DNA of 64,000 bases from Alphaproteobacteria bacterium (lineage in GTDB: Bacteria > Pseudomonadota > Alphaproteobacteria > UBA828). The stretch spans positions 1,752,221-1,816,220 of the forward strand of contig CBDEUP010000007.1 in NCBI GenBank assembly GCA_965243315.1, in the 5' to 3' direction. The position numbers and the translations under genes are program-made. Every line of letters begins with the position of its first letter. The stretch's first letter is position 1. Shown piece after piece: positions 40,692 through 58,739 of this stretch. Under the pieces are notes generated by a model. That model did not search any database, had not been told where the DNA came from, and saw only the letters and a program-made list of their open reading frames with translations.

Positions 40692-41948
40692 TCAAGCGGG
40701 CTTCCGCACCTGTTCGACTTCGATCCACAGGCTCTCGACGCCGCGAAGAACGATGCCGTCCCGGTACCGGGGCTCCGCCGCCATGTGTATCGACGCGAAG
40801 CGATCGAGCAGACCCCGGAACGCGATCCTCGCCTCCAGCACCGCGAGCGACGCGCCGAGGCAGAAGTGGATGCCGCGCCCGAAGGAAAGATGGCTCTTCT
40901 CCGTGCGTCCGATGTCGAGCGCGTCGGGGCTCTCGAACGCGGCCGGGTCCCGGTTCGCCGCGCCAATCAGGGCGATCACCTTATCGCCCACGCGCAGGCG
41001 CTTGCCGCCCATCTCCAGGTCCTCGCGCACGACGCGGCCGTCGAGCTGGACGGGGCTGTCGTAGCGCAGCAGCTCGTCGACAGCGGGTTCCAGCAGGCCG
41101 GGCTCGTCGCGCAGCCGCTGCAACTGATCGGGGTGGCGGAGGAGGGCCAGCATGCCGTTGCCGATGAGATTGCGCGTGGTCTCGTTGCCGGCCACCAGGA
41201 TCAACAGCATGGTGGACAGAAGCTCTTCGCGGGAGAGCTTGTCGCCCTCCTCCTCCGCCGCCAGCAGGGCGCTGACGATATCGTCCCGGGGCTCCCGCTG
41301 CCGTGCCTCTACGATGGTCTCGAAATAGGCGAACAACTCCTCCGTCGCACGCCGCACGCCCTCGACCTGCGCAGGGGTGAGGATTGGCTCGACGATGAGC
41401 GCGATGCCGTTGGACCAGCCTTCGAAGCGGTCCATGTCCTCTGCCGGCACCCCCAGCATCTCGGCGATCACGGTCACCGGCAGCGGGTAGCCGAGGGCTG
41501 AGATCAGGTCGAAGCGATCCTGGCCGGCGACCGCGTCAAGAAGCCGGTCGGAAATCGCCTGCACCCGCCCGTGCCAGCTTCTCACCGAGCGCGGCGTGAA
41601 TGCCCGGGAGACGAGCGCGCGCAGCCGCGTGTGGTCGGGCGGGTCAATGTCCAGCAGGGTTGTCAGGCCGGTATCGTGGAAGCGGCGATCCTCGTTGGAG
41701 AAACGTGCGTGGTCGCGGAGCATTGCGTCCGCGTCCTCGTAGCGGGCCAGCACCCAGGCGTCGACCAGCCGCATGCGGTGGACCGGATCCTTGTCCCTGA
41801 TCCGGCGATAGACCGCGTAGGGATCTCTCGCGACCTCTTCGGAGACGGGATTGTAGGCGACACCGGATTCGAGCCGCTCGTAGGCGAGCAGCACCTGCAT
41901 GGCGACCGGCTTGACGAGACTGGCAACAGCCCCCAACGTATCCACCAT
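40692..41948 (-). CDS. Cytochrome P450
   Basis: [14 protein letters not shown] heme-binding loop and an AGNETT-like I-helix ([14 protein letters not shown]). Start MVDTLGAV (41948) is inferred, because the upstream ORF extension is Arg-rich. Confidence 0.85.
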
Positions 41949-42266
41949 CGTCCATTCCCCCACCAGGTGACGACCGCGCACCCATACTAACCCAGGGGCG
42001 ACTCGAGGCGGATCGAGCACGCCATCCTTGCGCGATCCTATCCGCGTTCTTCGAATGGTTCGAAGGATCGCACTCGACGGACCCCGTTCCCGCCGCGGGT
42101 ATGGGAGGCGGCCGCCGCAAGGAACCATGCGACGAAAAGCTTGCGGGCGATCGGCTGTCAGCCTTGAGAACCGGAAGTCCGGGGTCGCTGCGGTCGCTGC
42201 AGGGGGACGACCGAGTAATGCTGCAGCGGCTGCCGTGGGAGCGTCAGCGCAGGTAGCGTCCGACGT

Positions 42267-45330: not shown

Positions 45331-45750
45331 GGCTGTACCTCTCTTGCCAGGTTCGCGCTGTGCTACCAGCGGGATACTTTACTCAATGGCGAATGAATCT
45401 TGCGTGTCAATACTCACGACAATAGCGCTCTTTTTGTAGACAGCGCGTTGGCTTCGTCGCCTGGCTGCCGAGGCTGCGGCGCGGGCCCAGGAATTGCGGT
45501 CCGGCTTCCAATCTGCGCAGCGGTAGTGCTGGCGGCCCAACGGCGGTGTAACGAGCTTGCCATAATATTTATGGAAAAGGCACCGTCACGATCAATGTAA
45601 ATACACACAATTTACTTCTATTGCCGTAAGAATCTAGCAATGAGTCTTGCGTTTCCAGGTGACCTCGGCCCTGGCCCGTCGGGTCAGCACTGTGACGTCA
45701 CGGTGGCAGGAGGCGGCCCTTCCTGGCTCCGGCGAAAGGGAGAAGACGGG

Positions 45751-46590
45751 ATGAGGATGGCACTCTCGATCGCGGTGCTGGCAGCTGCGGTCGCGCTCGC
45801 GTCCTGCACTCGGACGCTCGATCCTCCGACGCCCGAGGAACAGGCGCGGGAGAGCCACGGGGCGATCGTCGGCGCGGCGAACACGCTGCTGATGGGCGAC
45901 CGGCTGGCCTGGTTCGCGACGGAGGGCGACGTGGAGCGGGCGAACACGACCTGTCGGGACGACACCTGCGCGGTCGGATACCTGGCCTTGAGCAGGACGA
46001 CTCGGTTCGGCCTCGAGGGCTGGGAGCTGACGTTGCTTCGCGAGCGCCGCGGCGTGGGCCTGTTTCGACAGGAACTCGCGGCAACCCACCGCGACTATGA
46101 GGCCTATGGTGGTTGGCTCGAGCACAGCCTGTTCGCCACGCGGCTGACCCGGTTCGGCGAGGAGGCGGGCCCCAGCGCGGGGGCGTCGGTGGTGTTCGGC
46201 TATTCGCTCGGGCTCTCGAGCGGGGAGAACCCCGGCGCCGAAGGCTCGGCCCGCTGGGAAGGGCTGATGCTCGGCCGCGACGTCAGCGCCTCACGCAGCC
46301 GCGGCCAGGCGATCCGGGGCGACGCCGACGTGACGGTCGAGTTCGGAGCCGACGCGATCACGGCGGATGTCGCGTTCACCGGCATCGTCAACATCGAGAC
46401 GGGCGCTGCGCGGAACGACATGGCGTGGCGCGGCCTGGAGGTGGAGGACGGCGGCTTCGCCCGGCGGAGCGCTCCCGGCGACACCGTTTCGGGCCGGTTC
46501 TACGGCCCCGATGAGGAGGAGGTCGGCGGGGTCTTCGAACGCGACGGCATCGCCGGCGCCTTCGGCGGGCGGCGCACCTCCGCGCCGTGA
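45751..46590 (+). CDS. Surface lipoprotein with TbpB-like C-lobe beta-barrel domain
   Basis: Start MRMALSIAVLAAAVALASC has a lipobox, and RBS gggagaag lies upstream. C-terminus GRFYGPDEEEVGGVFERDGIAGAFGGRR matches the TbpB/fHbp beta-barrel C-terminal signature (G.FYG...E.GG.F....GAFGG). Confidence 0.65.
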   Translation: MRMALSIAVLAAAVALASCTRTLDPPTPEEQARESHGAIVGAANTLLMGDRLAWFATEGDVERANTTCRDDTCAVGYLALSRTTRFGLEGWELTLLRERRGVGLFRQELAATHRDYEAYGGWLEHSLFATRLTRFGEEAGPSAGASVVFGYSLGLSSGENPGAEGSARWEGLMLGRDVSASRSRGQAIRGDADVTVEFGADAITADVAFTGIVNIETGAARNDMAWRGLEVEDGGFARRSAPGDTVSGRFYGPDEEEVGGVFERDGIAGAFGGRRTSAP

Positions 46591-46646: not shown

Positions 46647-47498
46647 ATGAGAGTAGGATTCCCGAGTGCGTTGGCGGCAGCAGCGCTGGCGCTGGCGGCC
46701 TGCACCGGCTCGCCCGAGCCGCCACCGCCGCCGACGGCGGACGAGTTGGCGCGGTCCGCCTATGCACGGATCGTGAGCGGCTCGAATACGTACCTGATGG
46801 GCGACCATCTCGGCTGGTTCGGAACCGACGACGCGGTCGAACGGGTGGGCGTCAGGTGCCTGGACGACACCTGCGTGTCCGCCGTCCAACGGGCATTCCG
46901 GTCGACCACCGCGTTGAGCGTCGAAGGCAACGAGCTGGATCTGCTCGGCGAACGCCGCGGCGTGAGCCTGGTCGTGGAGGAAGCATCGGGCGATTACGCG
47001 GACGCCCACGTCTATGGCGGTTGGCTCGATCACAGCCTGTTCGCCACGGAAACCGCCCTTCTCACGCACGAAATCTTCCCGGACCGGGGCGCGACGGTGG
47101 CGCTGAACTATTCGGTCGGCTTCTCGACGGGGGAGAATCCCCGCGCAGTCGACGGCTTGGCCCGCTGGGAGGGACTGATGCTCGGCCGCGACATGCGCGC
47201 GACGCCCGGCCGTGCCCAGGTCATCTGGGGCGACGCCGACGTGACGATCGAATTCGGGGCGGATGCCGTGACGGCCGACGTCGCGTTTACCGACATCGCC
47301 AATGTCGATACCGGCGAGGCGTGGGGCGACATGGCGTGGCGCGGCATGGCGGTGGAGAACGGCGGCTTCGCCCGCAGGAACGCCCCCGACGACACGATCT
47401 CGGGCCGGTTCTACGGCCCCAACGAGGAGGAAGTCGGCGGCATATTCGAGCGCGACGGCATGGCGGGTGCGTTCGGCGGAAAGCGCGCCTTCCCATAG
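46647..47498 (+). CDS. Paralogous TbpB-like beta-barrel surface lipoprotein
   Basis: MRVGFPSALAAAALALAAC has a lipobox. The protein is collinear with the upstream paralog and ends GRFYGPNEEEVGGIFERDGMAGAFGGKR. Confidence 0.65.
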   Translation: MRVGFPSALAAAALALAACTGSPEPPPPPTADELARSAYARIVSGSNTYLMGDHLGWFGTDDAVERVGVRCLDDTCVSAVQRAFRSTTALSVEGNELDLLGERRGVSLVVEEASGDYADAHVYGGWLDHSLFATETALLTHEIFPDRGATVALNYSVGFSTGENPRAVDGLARWEGLMLGRDMRATPGRAQVIWGDADVTIEFGADAVTADVAFTDIANVDTGEAWGDMAWRGMAVENGGFARRNAPDDTISGRFYGPNEEEVGGIFERDGMAGAFGGKRAFP

Positions 47499-47609: not shown

Positions 47610-48032
47610 ATGAGCGCGACCTTTACACTCAATATGGAAGCACCGCTGGACGAAATCGAGCGCATTCACACGGCGGTCGACATCCTGGCGGCGGCCGATG
47701 GCTGGGAGCCCGATTTCATGTTTCAGATCAGGCTCGCACTGGAGGAGGTCGGCACCAACATCGTGCAGTACGGATACGACGAAGCAGGGAAAAAGGACAT
47801 CCGCATTACGCTTACCTCCAAAGGCCAATCCCTCACGATGGAAATCGTCGACGACGGCAAGCCCTTCGATCCGTTCTCCGATGCACCGTCGCCCGATCTC
47901 GACTCCTCGGTCGCGGACCGCCCCATAGGTGGCCTCGGCATCCATCTCGTGCGGAGGCTAATGGACGAAGCGCACTATCGGCGCGAGGACGGCAGGAACA
48001 GGGTGGTCCTGATCAAGCGGAGGAAGCCTTGA
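47610..48032 (+). CDS. Anti-sigma regulatory factor / Ser-Thr kinase (RsbW-like, HATPase_c_2)
   Basis: 140 aa. LALEEVGTNIVQYGY...MEIVDDGKPFDP...GGLGIHLVRRLMDE match the N, G1 and G2 boxes of the RsbW/SpoIIAB family. RBS aggag lies upstream. Confidence 0.7.
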   Translation: MSATFTLNMEAPLDEIERIHTAVDILAAADGWEPDFMFQIRLALEEVGTNIVQYGYDEAGKKDIRITLTSKGQSLTMEIVDDGKPFDPFSDAPSPDLDSSVADRPIGGLGIHLVRRLMDEAHYRREDGRNRVVLIKRRKP

Positions 48033-48355
48033 CGCGCCCGTTGACATGCCGGGGCAGCCGTTCCCACGCCGCGGTCACCGTGCTGGCGACATTGTCCGAT
48101 CCCAGGGGCCCCACTCCGTAACAGCAGCCATGCGACGATAATGTCTCGTGTCCCGCTCGGAAGGCGGCGCGGTGCAGAAATTCGTGGTCGCTCTGAGGGG
48201 AGAAAACATCCAGCATAGGCTTGCGTTACTCGGCGATCCGGGTCATCCCACGAAGATCGGTTGCGACCGCTTTTGCGGCAATTCCGCGCCGCCGATCGTC
48301 CTTGGCAAGGTCGCTCCTGCCGGCTCATGTTCATCGTCGATACGAGGACAAGCAT

Positions 48356-49384
48356 ATGAAGCTCAACGCAATCGTCGGCATTTTTGCTGCCCTCTGTGTA
48401 TCAATCACCGTCCTCGCGACCGACGTTTACGCAAGCACGCTCGATCATGTTAGGGCGGCGGGCACACTCAGATGCGGCATCAATCCGGGCCTGCCGGGCT
48501 TTTCCCATACCGACGATACGGGCCGTTGGTCCGGCTTTGAGGCGGCCTATTGCCGTGCATTAGCGGCGGCCGTTCTGGGCGATCCGGACAAGATCTCCTT
48601 CGTCACCCTGACGGGGAAGACTCGGTTTCCGGCCTTGGCCTCCGGCGAAGTCGACATCCTGTCGCGTAACACGACCTGGACATTCTCACGCGATGTCGAC
48701 CTGGGATTCACCTTCGTTGGCATCAACTACTATGACGGCCAGGGCTTCCTCGGCCACCGGGAGCTCGGCGTGGAGAGCGCCACCGAGCTCGACGGCGCCT
48801 CGATCTGCATCCAGACCGGCACGACCACCGAACTCAACCTCGCTGACTTCTTCCGCGTCAACGGCATCACCTACGAGCCGGTGCCGCTCGAGACCAACGC
48901 CGAAGCCCGTGCGGCGTACAAGGCGGAACGCTGCGACGTCTACACGACAGACGTTTCGGGCTTGGCGGCGACGAAATCGACCTTCGCCGACCCGGACGCA
49001 CACATGATCTACCCGGAGATCATCTCCAAGGAGCCCTTGGGGCCGCTGGTGCGCCACGGCGACGACCACTGGGCGGACATCGGGCGCTGGGTGCTCAACG
49101 CGCTGATCACCGCCGAAGAGCTCGGCGTGACCCAGGCGAACGTCATGGAGATGGCGAAAGGAACGGATCACCCGGAAATCAACCGGATGCTGGGCACTGA
49201 GGGCTCGCTGGGCGAGATGCTGGGCCTCGATGCGCAGTGGGCGGCGCGCGCAATCGCGGCGGAAGGCAACTACGCCGAGATCTTCGAGAGATACCTCGGC
49301 GCTGGCAGCCCGCTCGGACTGCCGCGCGGCCTCAGCGCCCTCTACGGCGACGGCGGCGCCCTCTATTCGCCGCCGTTCCGCTGA
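48356..49384 (+). CDS. General L-amino-acid ABC substrate-binding protein (AapJ/BztA-like), orphan
   Basis: Start MKLNAIVGIFAALCVSITVLA with a signal peptide. About 342 aa with AapJ-family features. No permease or ATPase is adjacent. Confidence 0.75.
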   Translation: MKLNAIVGIFAALCVSITVLATDVYASTLDHVRAAGTLRCGINPGLPGFSHTDDTGRWSGFEAAYCRALAAAVLGDPDKISFVTLTGKTRFPALASGEVDILSRNTTWTFSRDVDLGFTFVGINYYDGQGFLGHRELGVESATELDGASICIQTGTTTELNLADFFRVNGITYEPVPLETNAEARAAYKAERCDVYTTDVSGLAATKSTFADPDAHMIYPEIISKEPLGPLVRHGDDHWADIGRWVLNALITAEELGVTQANVMEMAKGTDHPEINRMLGTEGSLGEMLGLDAQWAARAIAAEGNYAEIFERYLGAGSPLGLPRGLSALYGDGGALYSPPFR

Positions 49385-49449
49385 AGTGTCTGAGAGCAGA
49401 CTCCGTGCCGACAAACCGCCGTATGTGGATAGGCGTCCCGGCTCGGTTA

Positions 49450-49574
49450 CACCGCTACCGATGACTGGTGGCACGACCATAGGCGTCAAGCCGGGCCTCC
49501 CTTACAATGAAGATGTGCTGACGCTGGCGCTAGGAGACGCAATTTTCCTCTACACTGACGGTGCGACAACCTGA
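49450..49574 (+). pseudogene. C-terminal fragment of a PP2C/SpoIIE-type phosphatase (gene remnant)
   Basis: MTGGTTIGVKPGLPYNEDVLTLALGDAIFLYTDGATT is collinear with VTSGIALGVMPDMDFVEDALHVAPGESVVFYTDGVTEA of the intact REC-PP2C gene downstream. It is followed by TGATGA stop codons, and no N-terminal part exists. Confidence 0.55.
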
Positions 49575-49829
49575 TGAGTCTTGAAGGTCAACCCCACTCT
49601 GATCGCCGCTGCATTTGGCAGCGAGGTTGCCAAGTCGATGCCGCGGCGGCGGGTGGGACGTGGCGCCCCAGTGGGTGACTGACTGCTTTGGGTCCTTCTC
49701 AAAGTCTTTCATCGCGATCGGATCGCGGTGGAGTTGAAATCCGAGAAAGGGTAACAACCGCACAATTCTCACCGTTTGGGGGCGACCCATTGCTTCCGCC
49801 CGTCGTCAACATCTGAGTAGGACGGCACG

Positions 49830-50486
49830 ATGCTGACATTCGTTGAAGAGACTTGCCTCTTGCTTCTGGATGAGAAAGGCAGCGAGTTCCTGCCCATACA
49901 CCCCAACATAGTAGAATGCGCCCTGGCCGGGGCCGTGCTTGTGGATCTGGCGTTCGCCTATCGGATTGACACCGATCCTAAGACCCTGGCCGTCATGGAC
50001 CGTACGCCGATCGGCGAGGCCATGCTCGATCGTATCCTGGCCAAGATCGGCGAGCACACGGAAACTACCGATACCGCCACTTGGATAAAGACGTTGTCCG
50101 CCGACGAATCGGCAGCCATTCAACAACAGGCACTCGACCGACTCGTGGAGCGGGGCATTCTAGAGCGGCAGGATAAGAAATCTCTCTTGGGTTTCCGCAA
50201 ACGCCGCTATCTCACCCTCGACGGCGAGGCGGCACGCGAGATCAAGGACCGTATAAGGACGCTCATTCTCTCGGATGACATACCCGATCCTCGGGATATC
50301 GCGCTGCTTTCTTTGTTAGATTCCTGTGGAATTCTTCCCGAAATTTACCCCGACGTCGAGTTCAAGAGCGCCGGCGTGCGAATAAGACAGCTCCGCAACA
50401 TGGATCTTGTTGGCCGCGACGTGTTCAACGCCGTTACCGACATCGAACGCGCAATCGTCACAGCACGTGCACACGGAGCCCACTAA
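49830..50486 (+). CDS. GPP34/GOLPH3-family protein
   Basis: CLLLLDEKGSEF...ALAGAVLVDLA...LVERGIL...SLLGFRKRRY fit the bacterial GPP34 family profile. GC is lower, about 55%. Confidence 0.65.
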   Translation: MLTFVEETCLLLLDEKGSEFLPIHPNIVECALAGAVLVDLAFAYRIDTDPKTLAVMDRTPIGEAMLDRILAKIGEHTETTDTATWIKTLSADESAAIQQQALDRLVERGILERQDKKSLLGFRKRRYLTLDGEAAREIKDRIRTLILSDDIPDPRDIALLSLLDSCGILPEIYPDVEFKSAGVRIRQLRNMDLVGRDVFNAVTDIERAIVTARAHGAH

Positions 50487-50546
50487 GACGTATGAAGAAC
50501 GCGACATCACGAGCGTTTTCACGAATCGCAAAAAACGAGTTGAGCA

Positions 50547-51743
50547 ATGACAGAAGAGCCAAACGCTGAAACACTAGAATTGCGTTCGACTCCCTACAAG
50601 ATTCTCGTCGTAGACGACGAACCTGACTTGGAACGTCTCGTTCTGCAGCAGATGCGCCGGGAGATTCGTCGCCAGCAGTATGAGTTTGTCTTCGCGCACA
50701 ATGGTATCGAAGCTCTTGAACGGCTCAGCCAGGATCCGGGCATCGATTTGGTGGTCTCGGACATCAACATGCCCAAGATGGACGGTCTTGCACTCCTTGA
50801 AGAGATTTCTGAAGTCAATGCGGACGTGCGTTCCGTGATCGTGTCAGCGTACGGCGATATGAAGAACATTCGCACTGCGATGAACCGGGGCGCTTTCGAT
50901 TTCGTGACCAAGCCCATCGACTTCGCAGACCTGAAGGTCACGATCGAACGAACATTGCGCAATCTGATTTCGTGGAGAGAGGCGACAGAATCGCGCGAAA
51001 AGCTTCTAGCAATACAAAATGAACTCGATGTAGCCAGCAAAATGCAACAGTCGATCCTTCCGACCGTTTTCCCCGCAGATTCTCGGTATCAGGTGTTCGG
51101 TAGCATGTCACCCGCTCGGGAAGTAGGCGGGGATTTTTTCGACATTATGAAATTGGAAGAGGGACGTATTGGTATTGCGGTCGCGGATGTGTCCGGCAAG
51201 GGCGTTCCCGCCGCCCTCTTCATGATGTCTTGCCGCACTCTTCTCAAAGGTGCAGCCATCGGCACCGCTCACCCTGGCGCGGTGCTGAAGGAGGTCAACC
51301 AAGTTCTTCAGGAAGACAACGAAGCGATGATGTTCGTCACGCTGTTCTACGCAATTTTCGACCCGCAGAGCGGGGAAATGGTGTATGCAAACGGGGGTCA
51401 CAATCCGCCAGTTATTGTTAAAGCCGATGGAAGCTCCAGCGAGATTCCCGTGACGAGTGGGATTGCGCTCGGCGTGATGCCTGACATGGACTTTGTGGAA
51501 GACGCGCTACATGTCGCGCCGGGGGAATCAGTCGTATTCTACACCGATGGCGTCACGGAAGCCGAGAATGCTACGGCAGAGTTGTTCGATATGGAGCGGC
51601 TGCGGATGGTCTTTACCGGAGTGCCCCCGAAAGACGCGAAAGAAGCCAACAAGGCGGTTTTCGAGGCGGTGAGCGCGTTTGCAGGCGACACGCCGCAATC
51701 CGACGACATCACTTGCATAACGCTCTATCGCTGCGAGTCATGA
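50547..51743 (+). CDS. Response regulator with PP2C (SpoIIE/RsbU-like) phosphatase output domain
   Basis: N-terminal REC domain (ILVVDDEPD...VVSDINMPKMDG...VTKP). C-terminal PP2C domain (GGDFFD, VADVSGKGVPAALFMM, YANGGHNPP, FYTDGVTEA). GC is about 52%. Confidence 0.85.
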   Translation: MTEEPNAETLELRSTPYKILVVDDEPDLERLVLQQMRREIRRQQYEFVFAHNGIEALERLSQDPGIDLVVSDINMPKMDGLALLEEISEVNADVRSVIVSAYGDMKNIRTAMNRGAFDFVTKPIDFADLKVTIERTLRNLISWREATESREKLLAIQNELDVASKMQQSILPTVFPADSRYQVFGSMSPAREVGGDFFDIMKLEEGRIGIAVADVSGKGVPAALFMMSCRTLLKGAAIGTAHPGAVLKEVNQVLQEDNEAMMFVTLFYAIFDPQSGEMVYANGGHNPPVIVKADGSSSEIPVTSGIALGVMPDMDFVEDALHVAPGESVVFYTDGVTEAENATAELFDMERLRMVFTGVPPKDAKEANKAVFEAVSAFAGDTPQSDDITCITLYRCES

Positions 51744-51901
51744 GGGTAAATTTTGGGCTCTTTTCCCGCTTCGACGCGGGGGAGCGACGATCGGCGGAGC
51801 TTCGGCGCGTTCCCGTCTCGTGCATGCGAGATGGCCCCGTCGCGCCGGCAGAGCGAGCGCCAGAGCGTCCAACCAGCAACGATACAACAGGGAAGCGGGC
51901 G

Positions 51902-53086
51902 ATGCGGGCAAGTGGTTTGCGCGCGGCTCTCCTCATGGCTATCTGGCTCACGCTTCCGGGTGCTGCGGCGGCGCAGGCAGAAGAGCCAGGGGTGACCGAC
52001 CAGCAGATCCTCTTCGGACAATCGGCGGCTTTCAGCGGTCCCGCGCAGGACCTGGGTAAGAACCTGCGGCTCGGTATCCAGGCGGCGTTCGAGGAAGCGA
52101 ACCGGCGCGGCGGCGTGCACGGGCGCACGCTGGCGCTTCGGTCTCTCGACGACGCCTACGAGCCGGAAGCCGCGATCGCCAATACCCGCCGGCTGATCGC
52201 CGACGATGGCGTCTTCGCCCTGATCGGCGCAGTCGGTACGCCGACCTCCCGCTCAGCTACACCCATAGCGGCCCATGCGGGCGTTCCCTACCTCGCGCCC
52301 TTCACCGGCGCCGAGTTCCTGCGCGACCCCAAGTTGCGCAACGTGATCAATCTGCGTGCCTCCTACTACCAGGAGACCGAGGCAATGGTCTCCCGCCTGA
52401 TCGGAGATCTGGGAATTGACCGGGTCGGGGTGATCTATCAGGACGATTCCTTCGGGCAGGCCGGCTATCGAGGGGTACGCCGGGCGCTCGAGCGGCGCGG
52501 GCTGGCGCCCGTGGCGATCGGGGTCTACCCGCGCAACACGACAGCCGTGAAAACGGCATTGCTCGACGTGCGGCGCTCTGATCTCGGAGCCGTCATCCTG
52601 GTCGGAGCCTATGAGCCGGTCGCCGCGCTGATCGCCTGGGCGCGGCACACCGGCTTCGATCCCGTTTTCCTGACGATTTCCTTCGTCGGCAGCAACGCTC
52701 TGGCGAGAGAGCTGGGTGCCGCCGGCGCCGGCGTCTTCGTGACCCAGGTGGTGCCCTTCCCCGACGGAGACGAGCCGGCCGTTACTCTGGCCTATCGCCG
52801 CGCTCTGGCCGCCTATTCGCCCGAAGCCGTGCCGGGCTTCGTCTCGTTCGAAGGCTACCTGGCAGGCCGTCTGGCGATCGCGGCTCTCGAGCGCTGCGGC
52901 CGTGAGGTCGACCGGGCTTGCGTGCTCGATAATCTGCGCCGCGCCGGCGCCATCGATCTCGGAGGCTTCGAGCTTCGATACGGCGACGAAGACAATCAAG
53001 GTTCGGACGCCGTCTTCGTGACCGTGATCGGTGGGGACGGCCGCTACCATCCCATCGACACACTTCAGCGCGCCGTGCAGCCATGA
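51902..53086 (+). CDS. Periplasmic binding protein, LivJ/Peripla_BP_6 type, coupled to histidine kinase
   Basis: Start MRASGLRAALLMAIWLTLPGAAAAQ with a signal peptide. The fold resembles the branched-chain amino acid SBP type. The stop overlaps the histidine kinase start in an ATGA arrangement. Confidence 0.75.
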   Translation: MRASGLRAALLMAIWLTLPGAAAAQAEEPGVTDQQILFGQSAAFSGPAQDLGKNLRLGIQAAFEEANRRGGVHGRTLALRSLDDAYEPEAAIANTRRLIADDGVFALIGAVGTPTSRSATPIAAHAGVPYLAPFTGAEFLRDPKLRNVINLRASYYQETEAMVSRLIGDLGIDRVGVIYQDDSFGQAGYRGVRRALERRGLAPVAIGVYPRNTTAVKTALLDVRRSDLGAVILVGAYEPVAALIAWARHTGFDPVFLTISFVGSNALARELGAAGAGVFVTQVVPFPDGDEPAVTLAYRRALAAYSPEAVPGFVSFEGYLAGRLAIAALERCGREVDRACVLDNLRRAGAIDLGGFELRYGDEDNQGSDAVFVTVIGGDGRYHPIDTLQRAVQP

Positions 53087-55338
53087 CCACGTTGGCAAGA
53101 CGGCTGCTCGACAGTCGCTTTCGACTCTCGACCCAGCTCTATCTGGGTATCGGGGGCGCTGTCGCGCTCACCGTCGTCGCCAGCGTGGTCGGCCTGGTTT
53201 CCTTCGATCACGTCGCTGAGGTTCAGAGACGCGTCAACGAAGGCAGCGTGCCCGAGATGGTGACGGCCTTCGGCGTGGCGCAGCAAAGCGGTGCCCTTGT
53301 GGCAGCCGGGCCGCGGCTGACGGCTGCAGCGACGCCGGAAGAACTCGCCCACACCGTCGCGGACATTTCACATGACCGGCAAGCCTTCGAAGCCCAGGTA
53401 GCCGCGCTGCCGGATCAGGGAGCGGAGGAGCCGCGCTTCGAGCGCATTCGCACCCAAGGCAATGCCTTGCTCGCGAATGTCGGCGCCATCGAGGAGTCGG
53501 TGGCCGAGGGCTTCCTGCTCACGGAGCGCAGCCAAGCGTTGCGCGCCGAAATCGCGTCCCTGCAACGGGAGCTCGCCGCGGCACTAATTCCGGCCATCGA
53601 CGACCAGCTCTTTTACACGATGACCGGCTATCGGGAGCTCGGCGAGGCGCCGGCACCTCGAGCGGTGCACAGATCGGAGGACGAGTTCAACCGCTATCGC
53701 CACATGGCGGGGTTGCAGGCGAACGCGACGATCGCAATCGAGCTTCTGGCGAGCGCGTTCGACGTCTCAGACATCGCTTTGCTGGAACCGCTCCGGGAGC
53801 GCTTCGAGGCCTCCGCCGGCAAGATCGAGCGCGGCCTGTCGGCCCTGGGCGTCACGCCCCTCCATGCCAGGATTGCACCCGCCTTGTCCCGTCTCGTCGA
53901 TCTGGGTCTGGGCCACGATCAAGGCTTCGACTTGCGGGCTCAGGAACTTTCTCTCGATGAGCGTCAGACGGCGTTGCTCGCGTCCAACAACAATCTTGCT
54001 GTCGAACTCGCCGCCGAGGCAGAGGGGCTGGTCAGCGCGGCGCGTGGGAGCGTCCAAGACGCGGCGCAGGCGTCCTCGTCGGCGATCAGCACCGGCGGCA
54101 ATCTCCTGCTTGCGATCAGCGTGACCAGCATCGTCGGGGCGGTGCTGATCTCATGGCTGTTCGTCGGCCGCGTGCTGATGCGGCGTCTCGGGCGGCTCTC
54201 GGATCGGATGCGCCGGATGGCCGAGGGCGATATCGAGGCGGAAGTGGTGGTCGACGGACGAGGCGAGGTCGCGGACATGGCCGCGGCGTTGGAGGTCTTT
54301 CGCCGTCACGCGCTCGAAGTCCAACGGCTCAACTTGGTGGAGAAGCTGGCAGAGGAGCTCAAGGGCAAGAACGAGCAGCTCGAGGACGCACTCGCGAACC
54401 TTCAGCGAGCGCAAGACCAGATCGTCATGCAGGAGAAGCTCGCGGCGCTTGGCGAGCTCACTGCCGGCGTGGCGCACGAAATCCGGAACCCGCTGAACTT
54501 CGTCAAGAACTTTTCAGACGTAACGGAGCAGTTGCTGGAAGAACTCCTGGAAGAGCTGCAAACGGTTCTCCCTGAGCCGGTCGACGGGAAGGAGGACGAG
54601 AGCAGTGCGCTGATTCGAGAAATCAGCGCCGACATCACGGAAAACCTCAGATTGATTCGGGAGCACGGCGAGCGCGCAAATCAGATCGTACACCACATGC
54701 TCAGCATGGGGCGTGATTCGGGCGGCCGACAACCGACGGACATCAATGCCCTGCTCGACGAGCATGTGCGGCTTGCCTACCACAGCGCCCGGGCAAGCGA
54801 TGACAGCTTTCAACTCGATATCGTCCAGGACTTCGATCCGGCGGTCGGATCTCTCGACGTCGTCACTCAGGACGTGGGCCGCGTCTTCCTGAACCTGGTC
54901 GGCAATGCCTGCCAGGCGACTGCCGAGAGGCGGCGCGCCGAGGAAGCCGCGGACGCAGCGGATCCCGGCCCCGAGGGCTCGGAAGGGGGCGCTTACGAGC
55001 CCACGCTCACCCTGGTCACCCGACGATCCGAAGAAGGGGTCGAAATCCGAATCAGAGACAACGGGAGCGGGATCCCACCCGAAATCATCGCCGACATCTT
55101 CAACCCCTTCTTCACGACCAAGCCGCCGGACCAGGGCACCGGTCTGGGCCTCGCGCTCTCGAGCGACATCGTTCGCCAGCACGGCGGCGAAATCAGGGTG
55201 GAGTCCGAAGTCGGCGTGTTCACCGAAATGATCGTCACGCTGGCCGCGCAACCGCCTCAGCAGACCGAGGACGACGCGGCCGAGGACGAGGCGGAGTTAG
55301 AGGACGAGCACCCCAAGGAGTCGCCCTTGCCATCGTGA
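53083..55338 (+). CDS. Sensor histidine kinase (TM, ~300-aa periplasmic domain, TM, HAMP, HisKA, HATPase_c), no REC
   Basis: H-box AAGVAHEIRNPLNFV. N and G boxes include NLVGNACQA and GTGLGLALS. There are two TM segments and a HAMP domain after TM2. Confidence 0.85.
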   Translation: MTTLARRLLDSRFRLSTQLYLGIGGAVALTVVASVVGLVSFDHVAEVQRRVNEGSVPEMVTAFGVAQQSGALVAAGPRLTAAATPEELAHTVADISHDRQAFEAQVAALPDQGAEEPRFERIRTQGNALLANVGAIEESVAEGFLLTERSQALRAEIASLQRELAAALIPAIDDQLFYTMTGYRELGEAPAPRAVHRSEDEFNRYRHMAGLQANATIAIELLASAFDVSDIALLEPLRERFEASAGKIERGLSALGVTPLHARIAPALSRLVDLGLGHDQGFDLRAQELSLDERQTALLASNNNLAVELAAEAEGLVSAARGSVQDAAQASSSAISTGGNLLLAISVTSIVGAVLISWLFVGRVLMRRLGRLSDRMRRMAEGDIEAEVVVDGRGEVADMAAALEVFRRHALEVQRLNLVEKLAEELKGKNEQLEDALANLQRAQDQIVMQEKLAALGELTAGVAHEIRNPLNFVKNFSDVTEQLLEELLEELQTVLPEPVDGKEDESSALIREISADITENLRLIREHGERANQIVHHMLSMGRDSGGRQPTDINALLDEHVRLAYHSARASDDSFQLDIVQDFDPAVGSLDVVTQDVGRVFLNLVGNACQATAERRRAEEAADAADPGPEGSEGGAYEPTLTLVTRRSEEGVEIRIRDNGSGIPPEIIADIFNPFFTTKPPDQGTGLGLALSSDIVRQHGGEIRVESEVGVFTEMIVTLAAQPPQQTEDDAAEDEAELEDEHPKESPLPS

Positions 55339-55365
55339 AGCGAGGCGGGAAGCCACTCTTCGGGC

Positions 55366-56667
55366 ATGCCACATAAGCGAGGTAGGATGGGCATACCTCG
55401 AATGAGGTCGCCGACGAGGAGAAGCGTCCTTCGGTACGGACTTGCCGGTTGCCTATTGGGTTTTGGCTGGAGGCCATCCGGCGCAGCGGCATCATCGGGC
55501 GTGACCGATAGCGAGATCGTGCTGGGCATGTCCGCTGCGTTCTCCGGTCCTTCCCGCGGTCTCGGCATAGAGCTCTTCCGCGGCGCCAGCGCCTATTTCG
55601 AGCACGTCAACCGCCAGGGTGGCGTCCGGGGTCGAAGAATCGTTCTCAAGACCTATGACGACGGCTATCAGCCCGACCCGTCGGTTCAGAACACGATGAC
55701 CCTGATGCTGGAAGACGAGGTCTTCGCGCTGTTCGGTTATGTCGGTACGCCGACGGTCACGCGCGTTCTTCCCATGCTCAAGAAGTTTCAGGAGAGACAG
55801 GTCTATCTGTTCTTTCCGTTCACCGGCGCGCAGCCGCAGCGGGAGCCGCCATACGGCCCCTTCGCCTTCAACCTGCGCGCCTCCTACCGGCAGGAGACGG
55901 CCGGCCTGGTACAGAACTTCGTCGGGATCGGCCGCAAGCGAATCGCGGTCTTCTATCAGGCCGACGCTTACGGCCGCAGCGGCTGGGCCGGCGTGCGACG
56001 TGCCTTGAGACCGTTCGGCGAGCGGATCGTCGGCGAGGCGACCTACAGGCGGGGCTCGAAGTTCACGGGCATCATGCGCGATCAGGTGGAGATACTGAAG
56101 GCGTCGCGTCCCGATGCGGTCATATGCATCGGCGCCTACGCCGCCTGCGCCGCGTTTCTCCGCGACGCGGTGGATCTCGGGTTGCGCGTGCCGATCGCCA
56201 ACGTGTCCTTCGTCGGCAGCGAGAACCTTCTCAATCTCATCACGCAAGGACGCGACGACGGCGAGCGCTACACCGAGCTGCTGGTGAACTCGCAGGTCGT
56301 TCCCAGCTACCACGACGTGGGGATTCCTGCTGTCCAGCAGTACCAGGAATTGATGGCGCGATATGACCCTCAGCCTCCGCAGGAATTGCTGAGAGAGGAT
56401 TACGCGCCCTTCTCGCACAGCTTCGTCAGTCTGGAGGGCTTCCTCAACGCCAAGCTGATGGTCGAGATATTGGATCGCCTCGGTGATCGGCCGGAGAGAC
56501 GCGCCCTCGAGGACGCCGTTTTCAGCATAAGTGATTTCGATCTGGGAATCGGGGAACTGGTGTCGTTCGGCCCGGAGCGCCGCCAGGGCTTACAGAAGGT
56601 CTACTACACCGTTGTGGACGAGGGCCGCTTCGTTCCCCTGGACAGCTGGCAAGACAGGTTCGCCTGA
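55366..56667 (+). CDS. Periplasmic binding protein, LivJ/Peripla_BP_6 type (second copy)
   Basis: Paralogous to the SBP at 51902..53086 (shared GQ/GVT(D)(S/Q)EI(V/L)(L/F)G...SAAFSGP, LRASY(R/Y)QET, VFYQ(A/D)D, FVGSN/FVGSE). Tat-like N-terminus SPTRRSVLRYG. Confidence 0.75.
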   Translation: MPHKRGRMGIPRMRSPTRRSVLRYGLAGCLLGFGWRPSGAAASSGVTDSEIVLGMSAAFSGPSRGLGIELFRGASAYFEHVNRQGGVRGRRIVLKTYDDGYQPDPSVQNTMTLMLEDEVFALFGYVGTPTVTRVLPMLKKFQERQVYLFFPFTGAQPQREPPYGPFAFNLRASYRQETAGLVQNFVGIGRKRIAVFYQADAYGRSGWAGVRRALRPFGERIVGEATYRRGSKFTGIMRDQVEILKASRPDAVICIGAYAACAAFLRDAVDLGLRVPIANVSFVGSENLLNLITQGRDDGERYTELLVNSQVVPSYHDVGIPAVQQYQELMARYDPQPPQELLREDYAPFSHSFVSLEGFLNAKLMVEILDRLGDRPERRALEDAVFSISDFDLGIGELVSFGPERRQGLQKVYYTVVDEGRFVPLDSWQDRFA

Positions 56668-56668
56668 C

Positions 56669-57415
56669 ATGAAAATTCTAAGACTCTTCCGCAAGACCCT
56701 GTTCGGCGTATTTTTCCTGTTCGGCGTAATCGGCATATCGACATCGGTTCTCTGCATTTACACAGTCGATACGCACCTGTCCGAAGAATATGAATCGAAC
56801 AGCAGGGATATCGCCAAGACGATCGCCGATGCCAGCGTCGACATCCTGTTGAACAGAAACCTGACGGCGCTCCAGTCCCTGATCGACCAGTTCGTCGAGA
56901 TTCAGGGAATCAGCTACATCTACATCACGAGCGAGACAGGGGAGTTTCTGGCCCACACTTTTGTTCCGGGCATTCCGGAGGAAATCAGGACCGGTGACGC
57001 GACCAGCACGGTGACGGTGGAGCGAAGCCTGCCGGGCATGGGCGATTTCGTCGAGGTCGCGAGTCCAATCCTGGCGGGCGTCGCCGGCGCGGTCCACATC
57101 GGCAGCGACACCGGGCTGATCGCGTTGAAGGTCCAAAGGGCGATCGGCCAGCAGATCTATCTCATCTCCATCATCTTCGTGGTCGGCATTCTCGCCGCGA
57201 TCTGGCTCGTCGGCCAGGCAGCTAGACCGGTCGACGGCGTTCTCGCCTTTGCGGTGAAGCTCGCACAGGAGCGGGAGACCGACAGCAGAGGAAACGAGAA
57301 ACTGCTCGCGCGCAATGACGAGGCGGGAGAGCTCGCGCGCCTCTTCCTCTACTTCTCGCAGGTGATGGATAGAGACAAGGCGGACGGGCTCTCGCAGCCG
57401 GGCGGTAAGGAATAG
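56669..57415 (+). CDS. Membrane sensor-like protein with extracytoplasmic domain and HAMP domain only (no output domain)
   Basis: MKILRLFRKTLFGVFFLFGVIGISTSVLCIY is TM1, followed by a periplasmic domain of about 150 aa. Then TM2 and a HAMP-like LVGQAARPVDGVLAFAVKLA...NDEAGELARLF. The start is 2 nt after the upstream SBP stop. Confidence 0.55.
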   Translation: MKILRLFRKTLFGVFFLFGVIGISTSVLCIYTVDTHLSEEYESNSRDIAKTIADASVDILLNRNLTALQSLIDQFVEIQGISYIYITSETGEFLAHTFVPGIPEEIRTGDATSTVTVERSLPGMGDFVEVASPILAGVAGAVHIGSDTGLIALKVQRAIGQQIYLISIIFVVGILAAIWLVGQAARPVDGVLAFAVKLAQERETDSRGNEKLLARNDEAGELARLFLYFSQVMDRDKADGLSQPGGKE

Positions 57416-57422
57416 CCGTCCG

Positions 57423-58739
57423 GTGGCTCATTCTCGCGCAGCGGCAATTCTCTACTGCACTGTTCTGCAGGTTTGCTTCGGGACCGTCTATGCGTGGAGT
57501 TTCTTTCAAACGCTTCTCGTGAGGCAGCTCGGCTGGTCGTTCACCGACACGGCGCTCGCCTTCAGCATCACGATCTTTTCTCTCGGCATGTCCGCTGCGG
57601 GCGCGGGCATGATTCTGCCCAAGGTGGGGCCGCGACGACTGGCGCTTGCCGGCAGTGTGATGTTCTCGGGCGGGTACATGATTGCGGGCCTCGCGCTGCA
57701 ACTCGACAGTCTCGCGCTCTTCTATCTCGGTTACGGCGTGATCGGCGGCGCCGGGATCGGGCTCGGCTACGTCACGCCCGTCGCCACGGTGGCGAAGTGG
57801 TTCCCGGACAAGAAGGGACTGGCGACGGGCATCGTCGTCATGGGCTTTGGGATCGGCGCGGTGGTTCTCAGTAAGGGACTGGCACCCTTGCTGGTGGTTG
57901 AGACGGAAGGAGATCTTCCGCTCCTGTTCATCTGGCTCGGCGTGGTGTTCGCCGCCGTCTTGATCCCGTGCAGCCTGGCGCTGCGGGATCCGCCCGCGGA
58001 GCTCGCAAGTCGTCTCGATAGTGCCACGGCCTTTAGCGGCGCGCAGGACGAGCCGGACTCGACCGCGCGCTGCCTGTATTCGGGCGAATTCGCCGTCATG
58101 TGGCTTGTGTTCTTCTTCAACATCGCTGCAGGCATCGCCGTTATCAGCTTTCAGTCACCGCTGCTTCAGGACGTGTGGGGACTTGCCGACCCGTCCGTGG
58201 AGCCGGAAACACTCGCCGAATATGGCGCGACGCTGATCGCTGCCAGCTCGCTCTGCAACGGATTTGGCCGGCTTTTCTGGGGATTGCTGTCTGATCGCAT
58301 CGGCCGCATCCGCGTGTTCAGGATCCTGCTGGCCAGTCAGATGATCGTGTTCGGCATCCTGATGACCGAGCGCGATCCGTGGATATTCTCGGCTCTCGTC
58401 TGCTACATCATGCTTTGTTTTGGCGGCGGTTTCGCGACGATGCCCTCTTTCGTGCTCGACGTCTTCGGTGCGAAAAAGATGTCTGCGGTCTATGGCATCA
58501 TGTTGACGGCTTGGGCGGCGGCCGGCGTCTGCGGTCCTCTCTACATCGGCTATCTAAAGGACCAGTACCCCGACCGCGCCATCATCTACTGCTTCCTGAT
58601 TGGGGTGTTGATCCTGGGTCTCGGGTACGTGTTCTCCTACCTGCTGAGCGACAAACGCATCCGACTTCAACGGCCGAGCGTGGAAAGCACGCTGCGGGAG
58701 CACGGAATCGCGATGCCGCGTCGTCGACAAGCAAGCTAG
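57423..58739 (+). CDS. MFS transporter, oxalate/formate antiporter (OFA)-like family
   Basis: 12-TM profile. The N-terminal LYCTVLQVCFGTVYAWSFF motif is characteristic of the OFA family. Confidence 0.75.
   Translation: MAHSRAAAILYCTVLQVCFGTVYAWSFFQTLLVRQLGWSFTDTALAFSITIFSLGMSAAGAGMILPKVGPRRLALAGSVMFSGGYMIAGLALQLDSLALFYLGYGVIGGAGIGLGYVTPVATVAKWFPDKKGLATGIVVMGFGIGAVVLSKGLAPLLVVETEGDLPLLFIWLGVVFAAVLIPCSLALRDPPAELASRLDSATAFSGAQDEPDSTARCLYSGEFAVMWLVFFFNIAAGIAVISFQSPLLQDVWGLADPSVEPETLAEYGATLIAASSLCNGFGRLFWGLLSDRIGRIRVFRILLASQMIVFGILMTERDPWIFSALVCYIMLCFGGGFATMPSFVLDVFGAKKMSAVYGIMLTAWAAAGVCGPLYIGYLKDQYPDRAIIYCFLIGVLILGLGYVFSYLLSDKRIRLQRPSVESTLREHGIAMPRRRQAS

Follow-up and report, generated by a model that had tools for sequence, protein, structure and literature searches.

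Partner switches and GPP34 proteins described so far

REC-PP2C proteins, such as RsbY of B. cereus and HsbR of P. aeruginosa, dephosphorylate STAS proteins. The locus described here resembles the RsbK-RsbY-RsbV-RsbW-SigB system of B. cereus in that a sensor kinase would feed a REC-PP2C protein and an RsbW-type HATPase_c_2 kinase is encoded nearby, and a related operon (L074 type, see below) adds a phosphorylatable STAS protein. Unlike the B. cereus system, the window (the whole 64-kb stretch of DNA analyzed) has no STAS gene, no sigma factor gene was found at any locus examined, the kinase in the window is non-hybrid and paired with a periplasmic binding protein, and a GOLPH3-fold protein (GPP34) occupies the position next to STAS. 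REC-PP2C or RsbY-like phosphatases also act with STAS proteins in HptB-HsbR-HsbA and RssB-RssC of P. aeruginosa, SypE-SypA of V. fischeri, and RbaV/RbaW/RbaY of R. capsulatus, proteobacterial systems in which STAS has targets other than, or in addition to, sigma factors (PMC6482189; PMC10120452; PMC3999984). None of these switches includes GPP34 in searchable papers, and the input in the window would be a binding-protein-dependent kinase instead of an Hpt relay. The original prediction overstated how unusual such a module is for Alphaproteobacteria, given that RbaV/RbaW/RbaY resembles RsbV/W/Y and has no identified sigma factor (PMC3999984).

On the input side, the locus is comparable to TorT-TorS, as the genes for the binding protein and the kinase are translationally coupled and the N-terminal 450 residues of the kinase match the TorS model. 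However, the binding protein is a Peripla_BP_6 member (LivJ/AmiC type), TorS has REC and HPt modules that are missing from the kinase, and the output would be a PP2C phosphatase rather than a DNA-binding regulator.

The view that GPP34 has essentially no characterized function in bacteria was nearly right, although bacterial GPP34 is now addressed in two papers from 2025, one on its enrichment in sponge symbionts (PMC11706023) and one on SCO4440 of S. coelicolor (PMC12402492). The former describes P450 fusions and P450 neighbors of the sponge-symbiont GPP34_S and proposes host PI4P binding and a role in phagosome maturation (Ferreira et al., 2025; PMC11706023); when the main text was searched by term, STAS, PP2C, and response regulators did not appear. 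The GPP34 in the window is likewise a single-domain protein of ~218 aa with relatives in metagenome-assembled genomes (MAGs) of the phyla named in that study, and a P450 gene lies upstream. Compared with eukaryotic GOLPH3 and yeast Vps74, it has ~20-24% identity, lacks the N-terminal extension, and has a bacterial host, where its gene and those for STAS or PP2C proteins are coupled.

A seven-gene sensing cassette

The window contains a conserved, mobile-looking sensing cassette of seven genes with GPP34 and a response-regulator phosphatase at its start, in the order GPP34, REC-PP2C, binding protein, histidine kinase, second binding protein, Cache-HAMP stub, and lactate-type MFS transporter. 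The genes from 47610 to 58739 are all on the + strand, and domains were assigned by Pfam and NCBIfam.

40695-42266: P450 gene, 7.6 kb upstream of the GPP34 gene
47610..48032, +: RsbW-like serine kinase, 140 aa (HATPase_c_2, Pfam PF13581, E 2e-28)
48356..49384, +: SBP_bac_3 periplasmic amino-acid-type binding protein with signal peptide (Pfam PF00497; ATG at 48356)
49413..49562, +: remnant of a second PP2C gene, a pseudogene (blastx), within the 445-bp spacer upstream of GPP34
49830..50486, +: GPP34 / GOLPH3-fold protein, 218 aa, acidic (Pfam, E 3e-39)
50547..51743, +: REC-PP2C response-regulator phosphatase, 398 aa (Pfam Response_reg and SpoIIE)
51902..53086, +: LivJ-type periplasmic binding protein with signal peptide (Peripla_BP_6, PF13458, E 7e-61)
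53083..55338, +: sensor histidine kinase, 751 aa (Pfam HAMP, HisKA, HATPase_c)
55366..56667, +: second Peripla_BP_6 binding protein with twin-arginine-like leader (PF13458, E 4e-41)
56669..57415, +: membrane protein, TM-sCache_3_2-TM with HAMP-like tail, 248 aa (Pfam PF17203, 40.5 bits)
57423..58739, +: MFS transporter, oxalate/formate family, L-lactate (SfMCT) type (NCBIfam NF049980)

The block common to other genomes spans 8.9 kb (49830-58739), from GPP34 through the MFS gene, and shares 85-92% nucleotide identity with L001, L002, and L019, whose flanks are unrelated and have transposase fragments downstream of the block. Nucleotide similarity to L001, L002, L008, L010, and L019 ends on the right at 58722-58739, at the MFS stop. 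The cassette is intact in L001/L011, L002, L008, L010, and L019, carries a ~1.7-kb insertion in L007, and is partial in L003, L009, and L013. It looks horizontally shared, as had been proposed for the GPP34/REC-PP2C pair, but neighborhood comparison indicates that all seven genes are shared as one unit. The dip in GC content on which that proposal was based (52-55%) is real and slightly less extreme, with 56.6% for GPP34 and 54.4% for REC-PP2C compared to 65.2% for the window (sliding-window minimum, 52.4%); REC-PP2C in L002 also has 54.4%, and the low GC therefore moves with the block.

The RsbW-like gene, the SBP_bac_3 gene, and the decayed second PP2C gene lie outside the block. A lower-GC signaling island mixing two-component and partner-switching parts is supported, except that the RsbW-like gene is not within the shared part. 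The original gene list was essentially correct, and the RsbW-like, GPP34, and REC-PP2C proteins, the REC-less kinase coupled to a LivJ-type protein, and the OFA-type MFS transporter were all recovered, although the SBP_bac_3 gene and the PP2C remnant between RsbW-like and GPP34 had been omitted.

The RsbW-like protein has N, G1, and G2 boxes (read by eye) and matches the NCBIfam RsbW/SpoIIAB models under their cutoffs. Its gene adjoins the cassette only in L007, L008, and L010, three syntenic relatives with ~90% identity, and is not found beside most copies of the cassette (L001, L002, L013, and L019). The SBP_bac_3 protein matches an NCBIfam Lys/Arg/Orn binding-protein subfamily under its cutoff (E 2e-52). 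Loci L002, L003, and L013 also have an SBP_bac_3 gene upstream of GPP34, L001 has a fragment of one there, and in L012 such a gene lies downstream. The PP2C remnant, directly upstream of GPP34, is of the type found in locus L041, with 58% identity to the L041 HAMP-PP2C protein across 50 aa (residues 534-583 of the latter; blastx, E 8e-17) and only 38% to the REC-PP2C protein of the window. L001 and L009 have longer copies that are decayed and contain in-frame stops; the one in L001 is annotated as a 112-aa SpoIIE fragment.

In the REC-PP2C protein, the acceptor Asp (D72) and the metal-binding Asp residues (D196, D214, D334, and D386/387) were identified by eye; its best NCBIfam match is Pseudomonas RssB, far under the cutoff. 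The stop of the first binding-protein gene overlaps the kinase start as ATGA, and the two genes are predicted to be translationally coupled. The kinase, with motifs read by eye, has a ~300-aa helical periplasmic domain, HAMP, HisKA (H465), and HATPase_c, and Pfam found no REC domain in it. It scores 24.9 bits against the Pfam TorS_sensor_domain (cutoff, 27), and residues 19-453 match the NCBIfam TorS model under its cutoff (E 7e-46). The second binding protein, kept in all complete cassette loci, is ~36-37% identical to the first, as judged from the L019 copies of both. It had been described as a LivJ-type protein coupled to a HAMP-only membrane protein; the type and the coupling (stop 1 nt before the next ATG) agree, but the partner is an sCache_3_2 protein in which Pfam finds the Cache domain only, no output domain was found, and the ‘ARPV...DEAGELARLF’ tail, read by eye together with the TM segments, appears HAMP-like. 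The MFS protein matches an oxalate/formate antiporter subfamily and clears the SfMCT L-lactate transporter model NF049980 (324.6 bits; cutoff, 320).

As predicted, neither STAS nor sigma factor genes were found in the window. Searching all six frames of the 64 kb with a profile of GPP34-linked STAS proteins (--max) gave a best match of only E 0.5, Pfam detected neither in the flanking and small ORFs, and ~30 larger upstream ORFs (869-39,999) were checked by eye as translations only. The other cassette loci also have no STAS gene. The STAS protein may thus be encoded elsewhere in the genome, or GPP34 of the cassette clade may be controlled directly.

STAS-GPP34 pairs in related genomes

A STAS protein is the dominant genomic partner of the GPP34 family of the window. 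The 82 unique GPP34 relatives surveyed fall into four clades that match gene context (loci analyzed were the best 80 of 266 and are not phylogenetically independent). In the largest clade (49/82), a STAS gene lies directly upstream of GPP34, at a distance of -7 to +13 nt in 46 of the 49 pairs, and the phospho-acceptor Ser is invariant in all 55 GPP34-linked STAS proteins. This arrangement behind a phosphorylatable STAS protein points to a role of GPP34 in partner-switch signaling. Neither the STAS-GPP34 link nor the expected-novel co-localization of GPP34 with a PP2C response regulator is described in searchable papers.

RsbW or PP2C genes occur within 10 kb of only four of the 49 STAS-GPP34 loci. 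Two alphaproteobacterial loci (L074 and L035) hold the whole set as STAS-GPP34-GlnE-REC-PP2C-RsbW-PBP6-HK, and the L074 proteins share 67% (REC-PP2C), 69% (first binding protein), 60% (kinase), and 48% (RsbW) identity with those of the window. A third alphaproteobacterial locus (L039) has STAS-GPP34-GlnE with RsbW and a fragmentary PP2C match, and neither a binding protein nor a kinase was detected in it. Locus L041 combines RsbW (41% identical to that of the window), HAMP-PP2C, two STAS genes, and GPP34.

GPP34 might instead be a non-signaling bystander, with REC-PP2C and the RsbW-like kinase serving an ordinary RsbV-RsbW-sigma or RbaVWY-type module elsewhere. The absence of STAS and sigma genes from the window would fit, as would the frequent scattering of partner-switch parts, the R. 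capsulatus system without a known sigma factor, and the existence of solo GPP34 genes, including L012 and cassette-clade members at 68-70% identity that stand beside a GAF-PAS-HK-REC-OmpR hybrid without PP2C. However, STAS-GPP34 pairs are kept in MAGs labeled Alphaproteobacteria, Binatia, Nitrospinota, and Thermodesulfobacteriota, where all other neighbors are lineage-specific, and orthologs of REC-PP2C, RsbW, the binding protein, and the kinase also accompany GPP34 in another gene order. Chance hitch-hiking is hard to reconcile with both observations, and the bystander explanation is rather unlikely.

The same genomes bear on whether GPP34 is a eukaryote-like sponge-symbiont effector acting against host PI4P or phagosome maturation, with co-transferred neighbors for unrelated nutrient sensing. 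GPP34 is strongly enriched in sponge-symbiont MAGs of 16 phyla (PMC11706023), every relative in the present survey is a MAG, and many of these are named as is usual in sponge datasets, and the GOLPH3 fold of the protein is genuine. Against this, no N-terminal signal peptide was seen by eye (although type III, IV, or VI secretion might be used), and the PI4P residues W81, R90, and R171 of GOLPH3 are not conserved, corresponding in a profile alignment to H24, A33, and a deleted loop. An intracellular role fits the translational coupling with a cytoplasmic STAS regulator in 46/49 pairs and the fusion of GPP34 to a four-helix membrane domain in another clade, and the effector explanation seems improbable.

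The cassette and STAS clades differ at H24/Q98/S118/L120 versus R24/R98/F118/W120, and these positions are possibly functional. Position 118 is Ser or Thr in the cassette clade, whereas the STAS and long-form clades have Phe there; it belongs to an exposed hairpin with basic flanks (E111-117 / E123-129). Together with the lack of STAS genes at cassette loci, this might mean that GPP34 replaced STAS and is itself phosphorylated by the RsbW-like kinase and dephosphorylated by REC-PP2C, for example at Ser/Thr 118 on the hairpin tip. Such a replacement is very unlikely, as RsbW-type kinases recognize the STAS fold, RsbW is missing beside four cassette copies (see above), and RHO3_bin_58 has both a cassette copy (L009) and a separate STAS-GPP34 pair (L086). 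That GPP34 is a winged-helix DNA-binding regulator, forming the transcriptional output of the switch in the position of a sigma factor, is hardly probable at all.

A candidate switch acting through GPP34

The best explanation, drawn from gene context and standing at about an even chance of being correct, is that a binding-protein-dependent kinase drives the partner-switch phosphatase REC-PP2C, with GPP34 as its STAS-linked partner or output. The domains present and the intactness of the catalytic motifs support it. Counting against it are the missing central link at this locus, where no STAS gene is present, the solo cassette-clade GPP34s, the 4/49 RsbW/PP2C proximity, the clade residue differences, and the fact that GPP34 and REC-PP2C are adjacent only in the cassette, possibly owing to a single origin.

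By analogy to TorT-TorS, the LivJ-type periplasmic binding protein would report a small solute to the helical periplasmic domain of the kinase, which, given their conserved adjacency, would phosphorylate D72 of REC-PP2C. As in the RsbY, HsbR, and RssB families, the opposing activities of the PP2C phosphatase and an RsbW-type serine kinase would then set the phosphorylation state of a STAS antagonist. The tight and widely conserved STAS-GPP34 pair, and the operons holding the whole set, suggest that GPP34 would be the protein that the STAS switch acts on or with. A cytoplasmic adaptor close to the membrane is a likelier role for GPP34 than a host-directed effector that binds PI4P.

Gene content of the 47.6–58.7 kb region

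The region appears, as judged from sequence, to be of interest mainly for a gene-context link between the GOLPH3-fold family and STAS/PP2C/RsbW switching, part of which lies outside the window, with the window copy itself being without STAS. Nine genes are located on one strand within 47.6–58.7 kb, together with a pseudogene remnant:

47610-48032 (+): RsbW-like HATPase_c_2 kinase (PF13581, 99 bits; ATP-binding boxes identified by eye)
48356-49384 (+): SBP_bac_3 binding protein
49413-49562 (+): pseudogene remnant of a HAMP-PP2C-type phosphatase, within the 445-bp spacer before GPP34
49830-50486 (+): GPP34, a single-domain bacterial GOLPH3-like protein of 218 aa
50547-51743 (+): REC-PP2C (Pfam Response_reg, 86 bits; SpoIIE, 178 bits)
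51902-53086 (+): Peripla_BP_6 binding protein, with its stop overlapping the kinase start as ATGA
53083-55338 (+): histidine kinase of 751 aa, with a long helical periplasmic domain, HAMP, HisKA (H465), and HATPase_c
55366-56667 (+): second Peripla_BP_6 protein
56669-57415 (+): membrane protein of 248 aa, sCache_3_2 plus a HAMP-like tail, starting 1 nt past the preceding stop
57423-58739 (+): MFS transporter that passes the NCBIfam SfMCT L-lactate cutoff and also matches the oxalate/formate family

The gene list of the original prediction was real and largely accurate, but the protein described as “HAMP-only” has an sCache_3_2 domain, and the SBP_bac_3 gene and PP2C remnant were unlisted. By eye, catalytic or acceptor residues are present in the receiver, PP2C, histidine kinase, and RsbW-like kinase, including acceptor D72 and metal-binding D196, D214, D334, and D386-387 in the REC-PP2C protein. 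The RsbW-like kinase does not reach the NCBIfam equivalog cutoffs for RsbW or SpoIIAB, and the 248-aa membrane protein has no output domain. This Cache-HAMP stub is kept between the binding-protein and lactate-type MFS genes in every complete copy of the cassette extending from GPP34 to the MFS gene (49830-58739). The GC content of the GPP34/REC-PP2C pair had been given as about 52–55%, which holds for REC-PP2C (54.4%, below the 65.2% of the window) but not for GPP34 (56.6%). As no promoter-like sites were found between 47.3 and 59.4 kb and terminator-like sites were fewer there than in shuffles, operon limits were not drawn. An exact-sequence database look-up returned no record for the window REC-PP2C or for protein P0086.

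The PP2C remnant shares 58% identity with the C-terminal portion of a HAMP-PP2C protein that neighbors GPP34 in L041 (handles of this type denote related GPP34 loci in other genomes), and the equivalent spacer position in L001 and L009 holds longer decayed PP2C copies with in-frame stops. The SBP_bac_3 protein was considered as a common sensor and rejected, as its identity to the SBP_bac_3 proteins of L002 and L041 is just 25–27%, and in L041 these proteins are part of an ABC transporter.

The flanks of this region encode mreB, a cytochrome P450, an IclR-type regulator, a further SBP_bac_3 protein, two TbpB-barrel-like proteins, a glycosyltransferase, and an ABC transporter. The P450 gene (40695-42266, – strand) adjoins mreB and is located 7.6 kb upstream of GPP34; in sponge symbionts, P450 genes have been reported as fused to or located near GPP34 (Ferreira et al., 2025; PMC11706023). 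The TbpB-barrel-like genes (45640-46590 and 46647-47498, + strand) are tandem paralogues with weak matches to TbpB_B_D (transferrin-binding-protein beta-barrel), occupy a 70–74% GC stretch directly upstream of the RsbW-like gene, and also occur in L007, L008, and L010 at just 72–82% nucleotide identity.

Neither a STAS antagonist nor a sigma factor was found in the scanned sequence, as originally predicted. An unfiltered (--max) search of all six frames of the 64 kb with a profile of 55 GPP34-linked STAS proteins gave a best match of E 0.5, and Pfam searches of the flanking genes and the small or unassigned ORFs of the window identified neither STAS nor Sigma70 domains; for the larger upstream ORFs, the translations were read by eye. 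There was also no sigma factor among the called genes of L001–L006. A STAS gene is, on the other hand, present in loci related to that of the window.

Conservation and surroundings of the seven-gene block

The nearest GPP34 homologues are 73–96% identical to the window protein, and their contigs keep seven genes in the order from GPP34 to MFS. The full block is found in L001/L011, L002, L008, L010, and L019, and in L007 with an insertion of ~1.7 kb, while the copies in L003, L009, and L013 are truncated at contig ends. Nucleotide identity of the block to the window is ~92% in L001, 91% in L002, and 85% in L019, and ends at the MFS stop codon (58722-58739). The flanks are unlike those of the window in L001 (polyketide synthase, xanthine permease), L002 (LuxR-type gene), and L019. 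Downstream of the block lie transposase fragments, which are Mu-type and IS630-type in L001 and IS1595 in L002. Synteny with the window continues further upstream only in L007, L008, and L010, which are also the only ones to have the window's RsbW-like and SBP_bac_3 genes in common with it. The low GC content of REC-PP2C accompanies the block, with values of 54.4% for L002 and 58.7% for L019. Given seven genes in fixed order with differing flanks, the notion of a cassette was upheld, but the unit is a seven-gene block residing at different genomic places and not the GPP34/REC-PP2C pair. We do not claim cross-phylum transfer because the labels of short MAG contigs (for example, “Chloroflexota” or “Deltaproteobacteria”) may be binning errors.

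No terminal inverted or direct repeats were found at the cassette ends, where only short chance or paralogue matches occur. The GPP34 gene shares 76–79% nucleotide identity with those of L002 and L019, compared to 85–91% for the downstream block genes, which suggests that the 5′ end of the cassette evolves faster or has recombined. The insertion in L007 (15353-17031) corresponds to window position ~55020-55030, near the 3′ end of the histidine kinase gene, and is absent from the window, L008, and L010.

GPP34 clades and pairing with STAS

The window protein matches Pfam PF05719 above the gathering score, has the GOLPH3 fold, and shows the single-domain architecture of the short GPP34 (GPP34_S) of sponge symbionts (PMC11706023). 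A scan with one genome per species identified 266 loci with GPP34 relatives, of which the best 80, all from MAGs, were analyzed. The MAG names resemble those of sponge datasets, going by the naming pattern in the Fig. 5 legend of PMC11706023. Together with the window and the earlier loci, the best 80 of 266 yielded 82 unique GPP34 sequences, and a neighbor-joining tree of these separated four clades that match gene context. The cassette clade contains 10 of the 82 sequences, including that of the window, and a small clade of three has GPP34 beside NmrA-like and methyltransferase genes. In a “long” clade (20 of 82, ~391 aa), GPP34 carries a fused C-terminal four-helix membrane domain that contains conserved histidines and has no Pfam match. 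The gene (~10001-11180 in L021, L025, L049, L017, and 16 other loci) is always followed by a gene for a multihaem cytochrome c of 492 aa and by a Tll0287-like gene. Three loci (L087 and L089, 10001-10657; L088, 2906-3571) have a solo cassette-clade GPP34 with 68–70% identity, divergent from a 781-aa GAF-PAS-HisKA-HATPase-REC-OmpR-type hybrid regulator and with no PP2C or STAS nearby.

The largest clade among these best loci (49 of 82) has a STAS gene immediately upstream of GPP34, and in 46 of the 49 unique pairs, GPP34 starts –7 to +13 nt from the STAS stop. By Pfam (STAS) and NCBIfam (TIGR00377), the linked STAS proteins belong to the typical anti-sigma-factor antagonists, and every one of them (55/55) has a serine at the phospho-acceptor position of SpoIIAA/RsbV, within the motif D-C-x-x-M-x-Y-[IV]-S-S-A-G-L-R. 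These pairs occur in MAGs labeled Alphaproteobacteria, Binatia, Nitrospinota, and Thermodesulfobacteriota. A universal third partner was sought by Pfam annotation of 150 neighbors and discarded, as only lineage-specific metabolic genes (CoA-transferase, MaoC, EamA, thiolase) were recovered; with STAS-GPP34 conserved and the other neighbors lineage-specific, the pair is kept together while its surroundings change. Neither 19 STAS homologues nor 120 GPP34 homologues included a natural STAS-GPP34 fusion. It is improbable that GPP34 is a bystander gene.

Several loci join GPP34 to further switch components. In the alphaproteobacterial MAG loci L074 and L035, one tight operon encodes STAS, GPP34, GlnE, REC-PP2C, an RsbW-like kinase, Peripla_BP_6, and a TorS-like histidine kinase. 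The L074 proteins are clear counterparts of those in the window, with identities of 67% (REC-PP2C), 69% (binding protein), 60% (histidine kinase), 48% (RsbW-like kinase), and 48% (GPP34). The L039 locus has STAS, GPP34, GlnE, RsbW, and a fragmentary PP2C match, with no binding protein or kinase detected. In L041, GPP34 occurs together with two STAS genes, an RsbW-like gene, HAMP-PP2C, and an ammonium transporter. GPP34 thus accompanies partner-switch parts in at least three architectures. From this comparison, the window looks like a rearranged version in which STAS was lost or never present. Because at least one MAG, RHO3_bin_58, combines a cassette copy (L009) with a STAS-GPP34 pair elsewhere (L086), it is plausible that a STAS protein is encoded in trans in the genome of the window.

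The gene following GPP34 in L074 (10656-13718), L035 (10671-13673), and L039 (10712-13783) is glnE (glutamine synthetase adenylyltransferase), and the ammonium transporter gene (Amt) of L041 (7393-9057) precedes the two STAS genes. A link to nitrogen regulation was considered and not generalized by the wider survey of STAS-GPP34 neighbors.

A candidate partner-switching role for GPP34

Partner switching is a classic bacterial regulatory logic, with SypA, HsbA, and RbaV as examples of a non-sigma output. A kinase-fed REC-PP2C phosphatase is established in B. cereus (RsbK-RsbY), as are the proteobacterial non-sigma partner switches HsbR-HsbA and RssB-RssC of P. aeruginosa and SypE-SypA of V. fischeri. 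In R. capsulatus, no sigma factor was found for the RbaVWY partner switch (PMC3999984). Considering these switches, the logic is neither new nor foreign to Alphaproteobacteria, and the RbaVWY precedent speaks against the initial view of an RsbW/PP2C module as unusual for the class. Compared to the canonical RsbV-RsbW-sigma and SpoIIAA-AB-sigmaF systems, the window has the HATPase_c_2 anti-sigma serine kinase (47610-48032), whereas the STAS antagonist with a phosphorylatable serine is absent from the module and a cognate sigma factor was not found with it. The REC-PP2C protein has the domain architecture of the RsbY/HsbR-type phosphatases, with an N-terminal receiver carrying the acceptor Asp and a SpoIIE/PP2C domain carrying the metal-binding Asp. 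The window kinase scores 24.9 bits for the Pfam TorS_sensor_domain, below the cutoff of 27, and its residues 19-453 match the NCBIfam TorS model (E 7e-46) far below the equivalog cutoff. TorT-TorS involves a hybrid kinase that includes REC and HPt modules and works with a DNA-binding partner of the TorR type, whereas the window kinase has no REC or HPt domain by Pfam and the sole response regulator of the cassette has a PP2C output.

We consider a scheme leading from the binding protein through the kinase, REC-PP2C (with RsbW), and STAS to GPP34 to have an even chance of being correct. Its observed basis is comparative genomics only, namely gene content, intact motifs, conserved order, and coupling. 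The first binding protein would sense a solute and dock on the kinase, by analogy to TorT-TorS and outside that family's cutoffs, and the kinase would phosphorylate REC-PP2C. REC-PP2C may then serve as a kinase-controlled phosphatase of phosphorylated STAS, as its gene adjoins that of the kinase in all cassette loci, L074, and L035, and that of STAS in the latter two; together with the RsbW-type kinase, it would set the phosphorylation state of STAS, which would act on or with GPP34. The second binding protein, Cache-HAMP stub, and lactate-type transporter could form an accessory sensing or uptake arm. That GPP34 is itself the direct phospho-substrate seems quite unlikely.

We tentatively propose, at slightly less than an even likelihood, that GPP34 is a previously unrecognized partner or output arm of STAS/RsbW/PP2C switching, with STAS in its phosphorylated or dephosphorylated form binding GPP34 directly and thereby controlling a membrane-proximal process. 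The PI4P-binding pocket of human GOLPH3, which we take to consist of W81, R90, R171, and R174, is not conserved in the window GPP34 by profile-to-GOLPH3 sequence alignment. In this alignment, W81 falls at a position that varies (H24 in the window, R in the STAS clade), R90 corresponds to A33 in the window, R171 is within a loop absent from the bacterial protein, and R174 corresponds to Q98 in the window and R in the STAS clade. The STAS clade thus has arginines at both 24 and 98, and its hairpin tip is hydrophobic (F118, W120), while the cassette clade has H24, Q98, S118, and L120. STAS could possibly contact GPP34 through the basic pocket (R24 and R98 in the STAS clade) that binds the PI4P phosphate in eukaryotes. 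A host PI4P-binding role has been proposed for GPP34, which is enriched in sponge symbionts (PMC11706023), but gene context and the missing pocket residues do not favor such binding for the subfamily of the window, and we regard a host-directed PI4P effector as unlikely. No N-terminal signal peptide was seen by eye. A DNA-binding winged-helix regulator is very unlikely, and is treated as a minor possibility because GPP34 proteins are acidic (pI 4.4–5.3) and the long-clade proteins are fused to a membrane domain.

In S. coelicolor, the GPP34 protein SCO4440 affects peptidoglycan cross-links (PMC12402492). The openly searchable full-text literature contained no paper pairing GPP34 or GOLPH3 with anti-sigma terms, or GPP34 with response regulators and phosphatases, in agreement with the earlier impression that a link between GPP34 and a PP2C response regulator is undescribed; by term search, STAS, PP2C, SpoIIE, and response regulators are likewise absent from the main text of PMC11706023.

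The translational coupling of GPP34 to STAS across four phylum- or class-level labels makes GPP34 a concrete, testable candidate for a non-sigma output. It also provides a functional handle on bacterial GPP34, a family that has recently drawn attention as characteristic of sponge symbionts and as a potential bacterial precursor of a Golgi protein. The STAS-less variant cassette of the window lends itself to asking which components the system can do without. If the proposed role is true, the eukaryotic Golgi adaptor fold would have a bacterial counterpart serving as a signaling adaptor, and the enrichment of GPP34 in sponge symbionts would reflect intracellular regulation instead of a host-directed effector.
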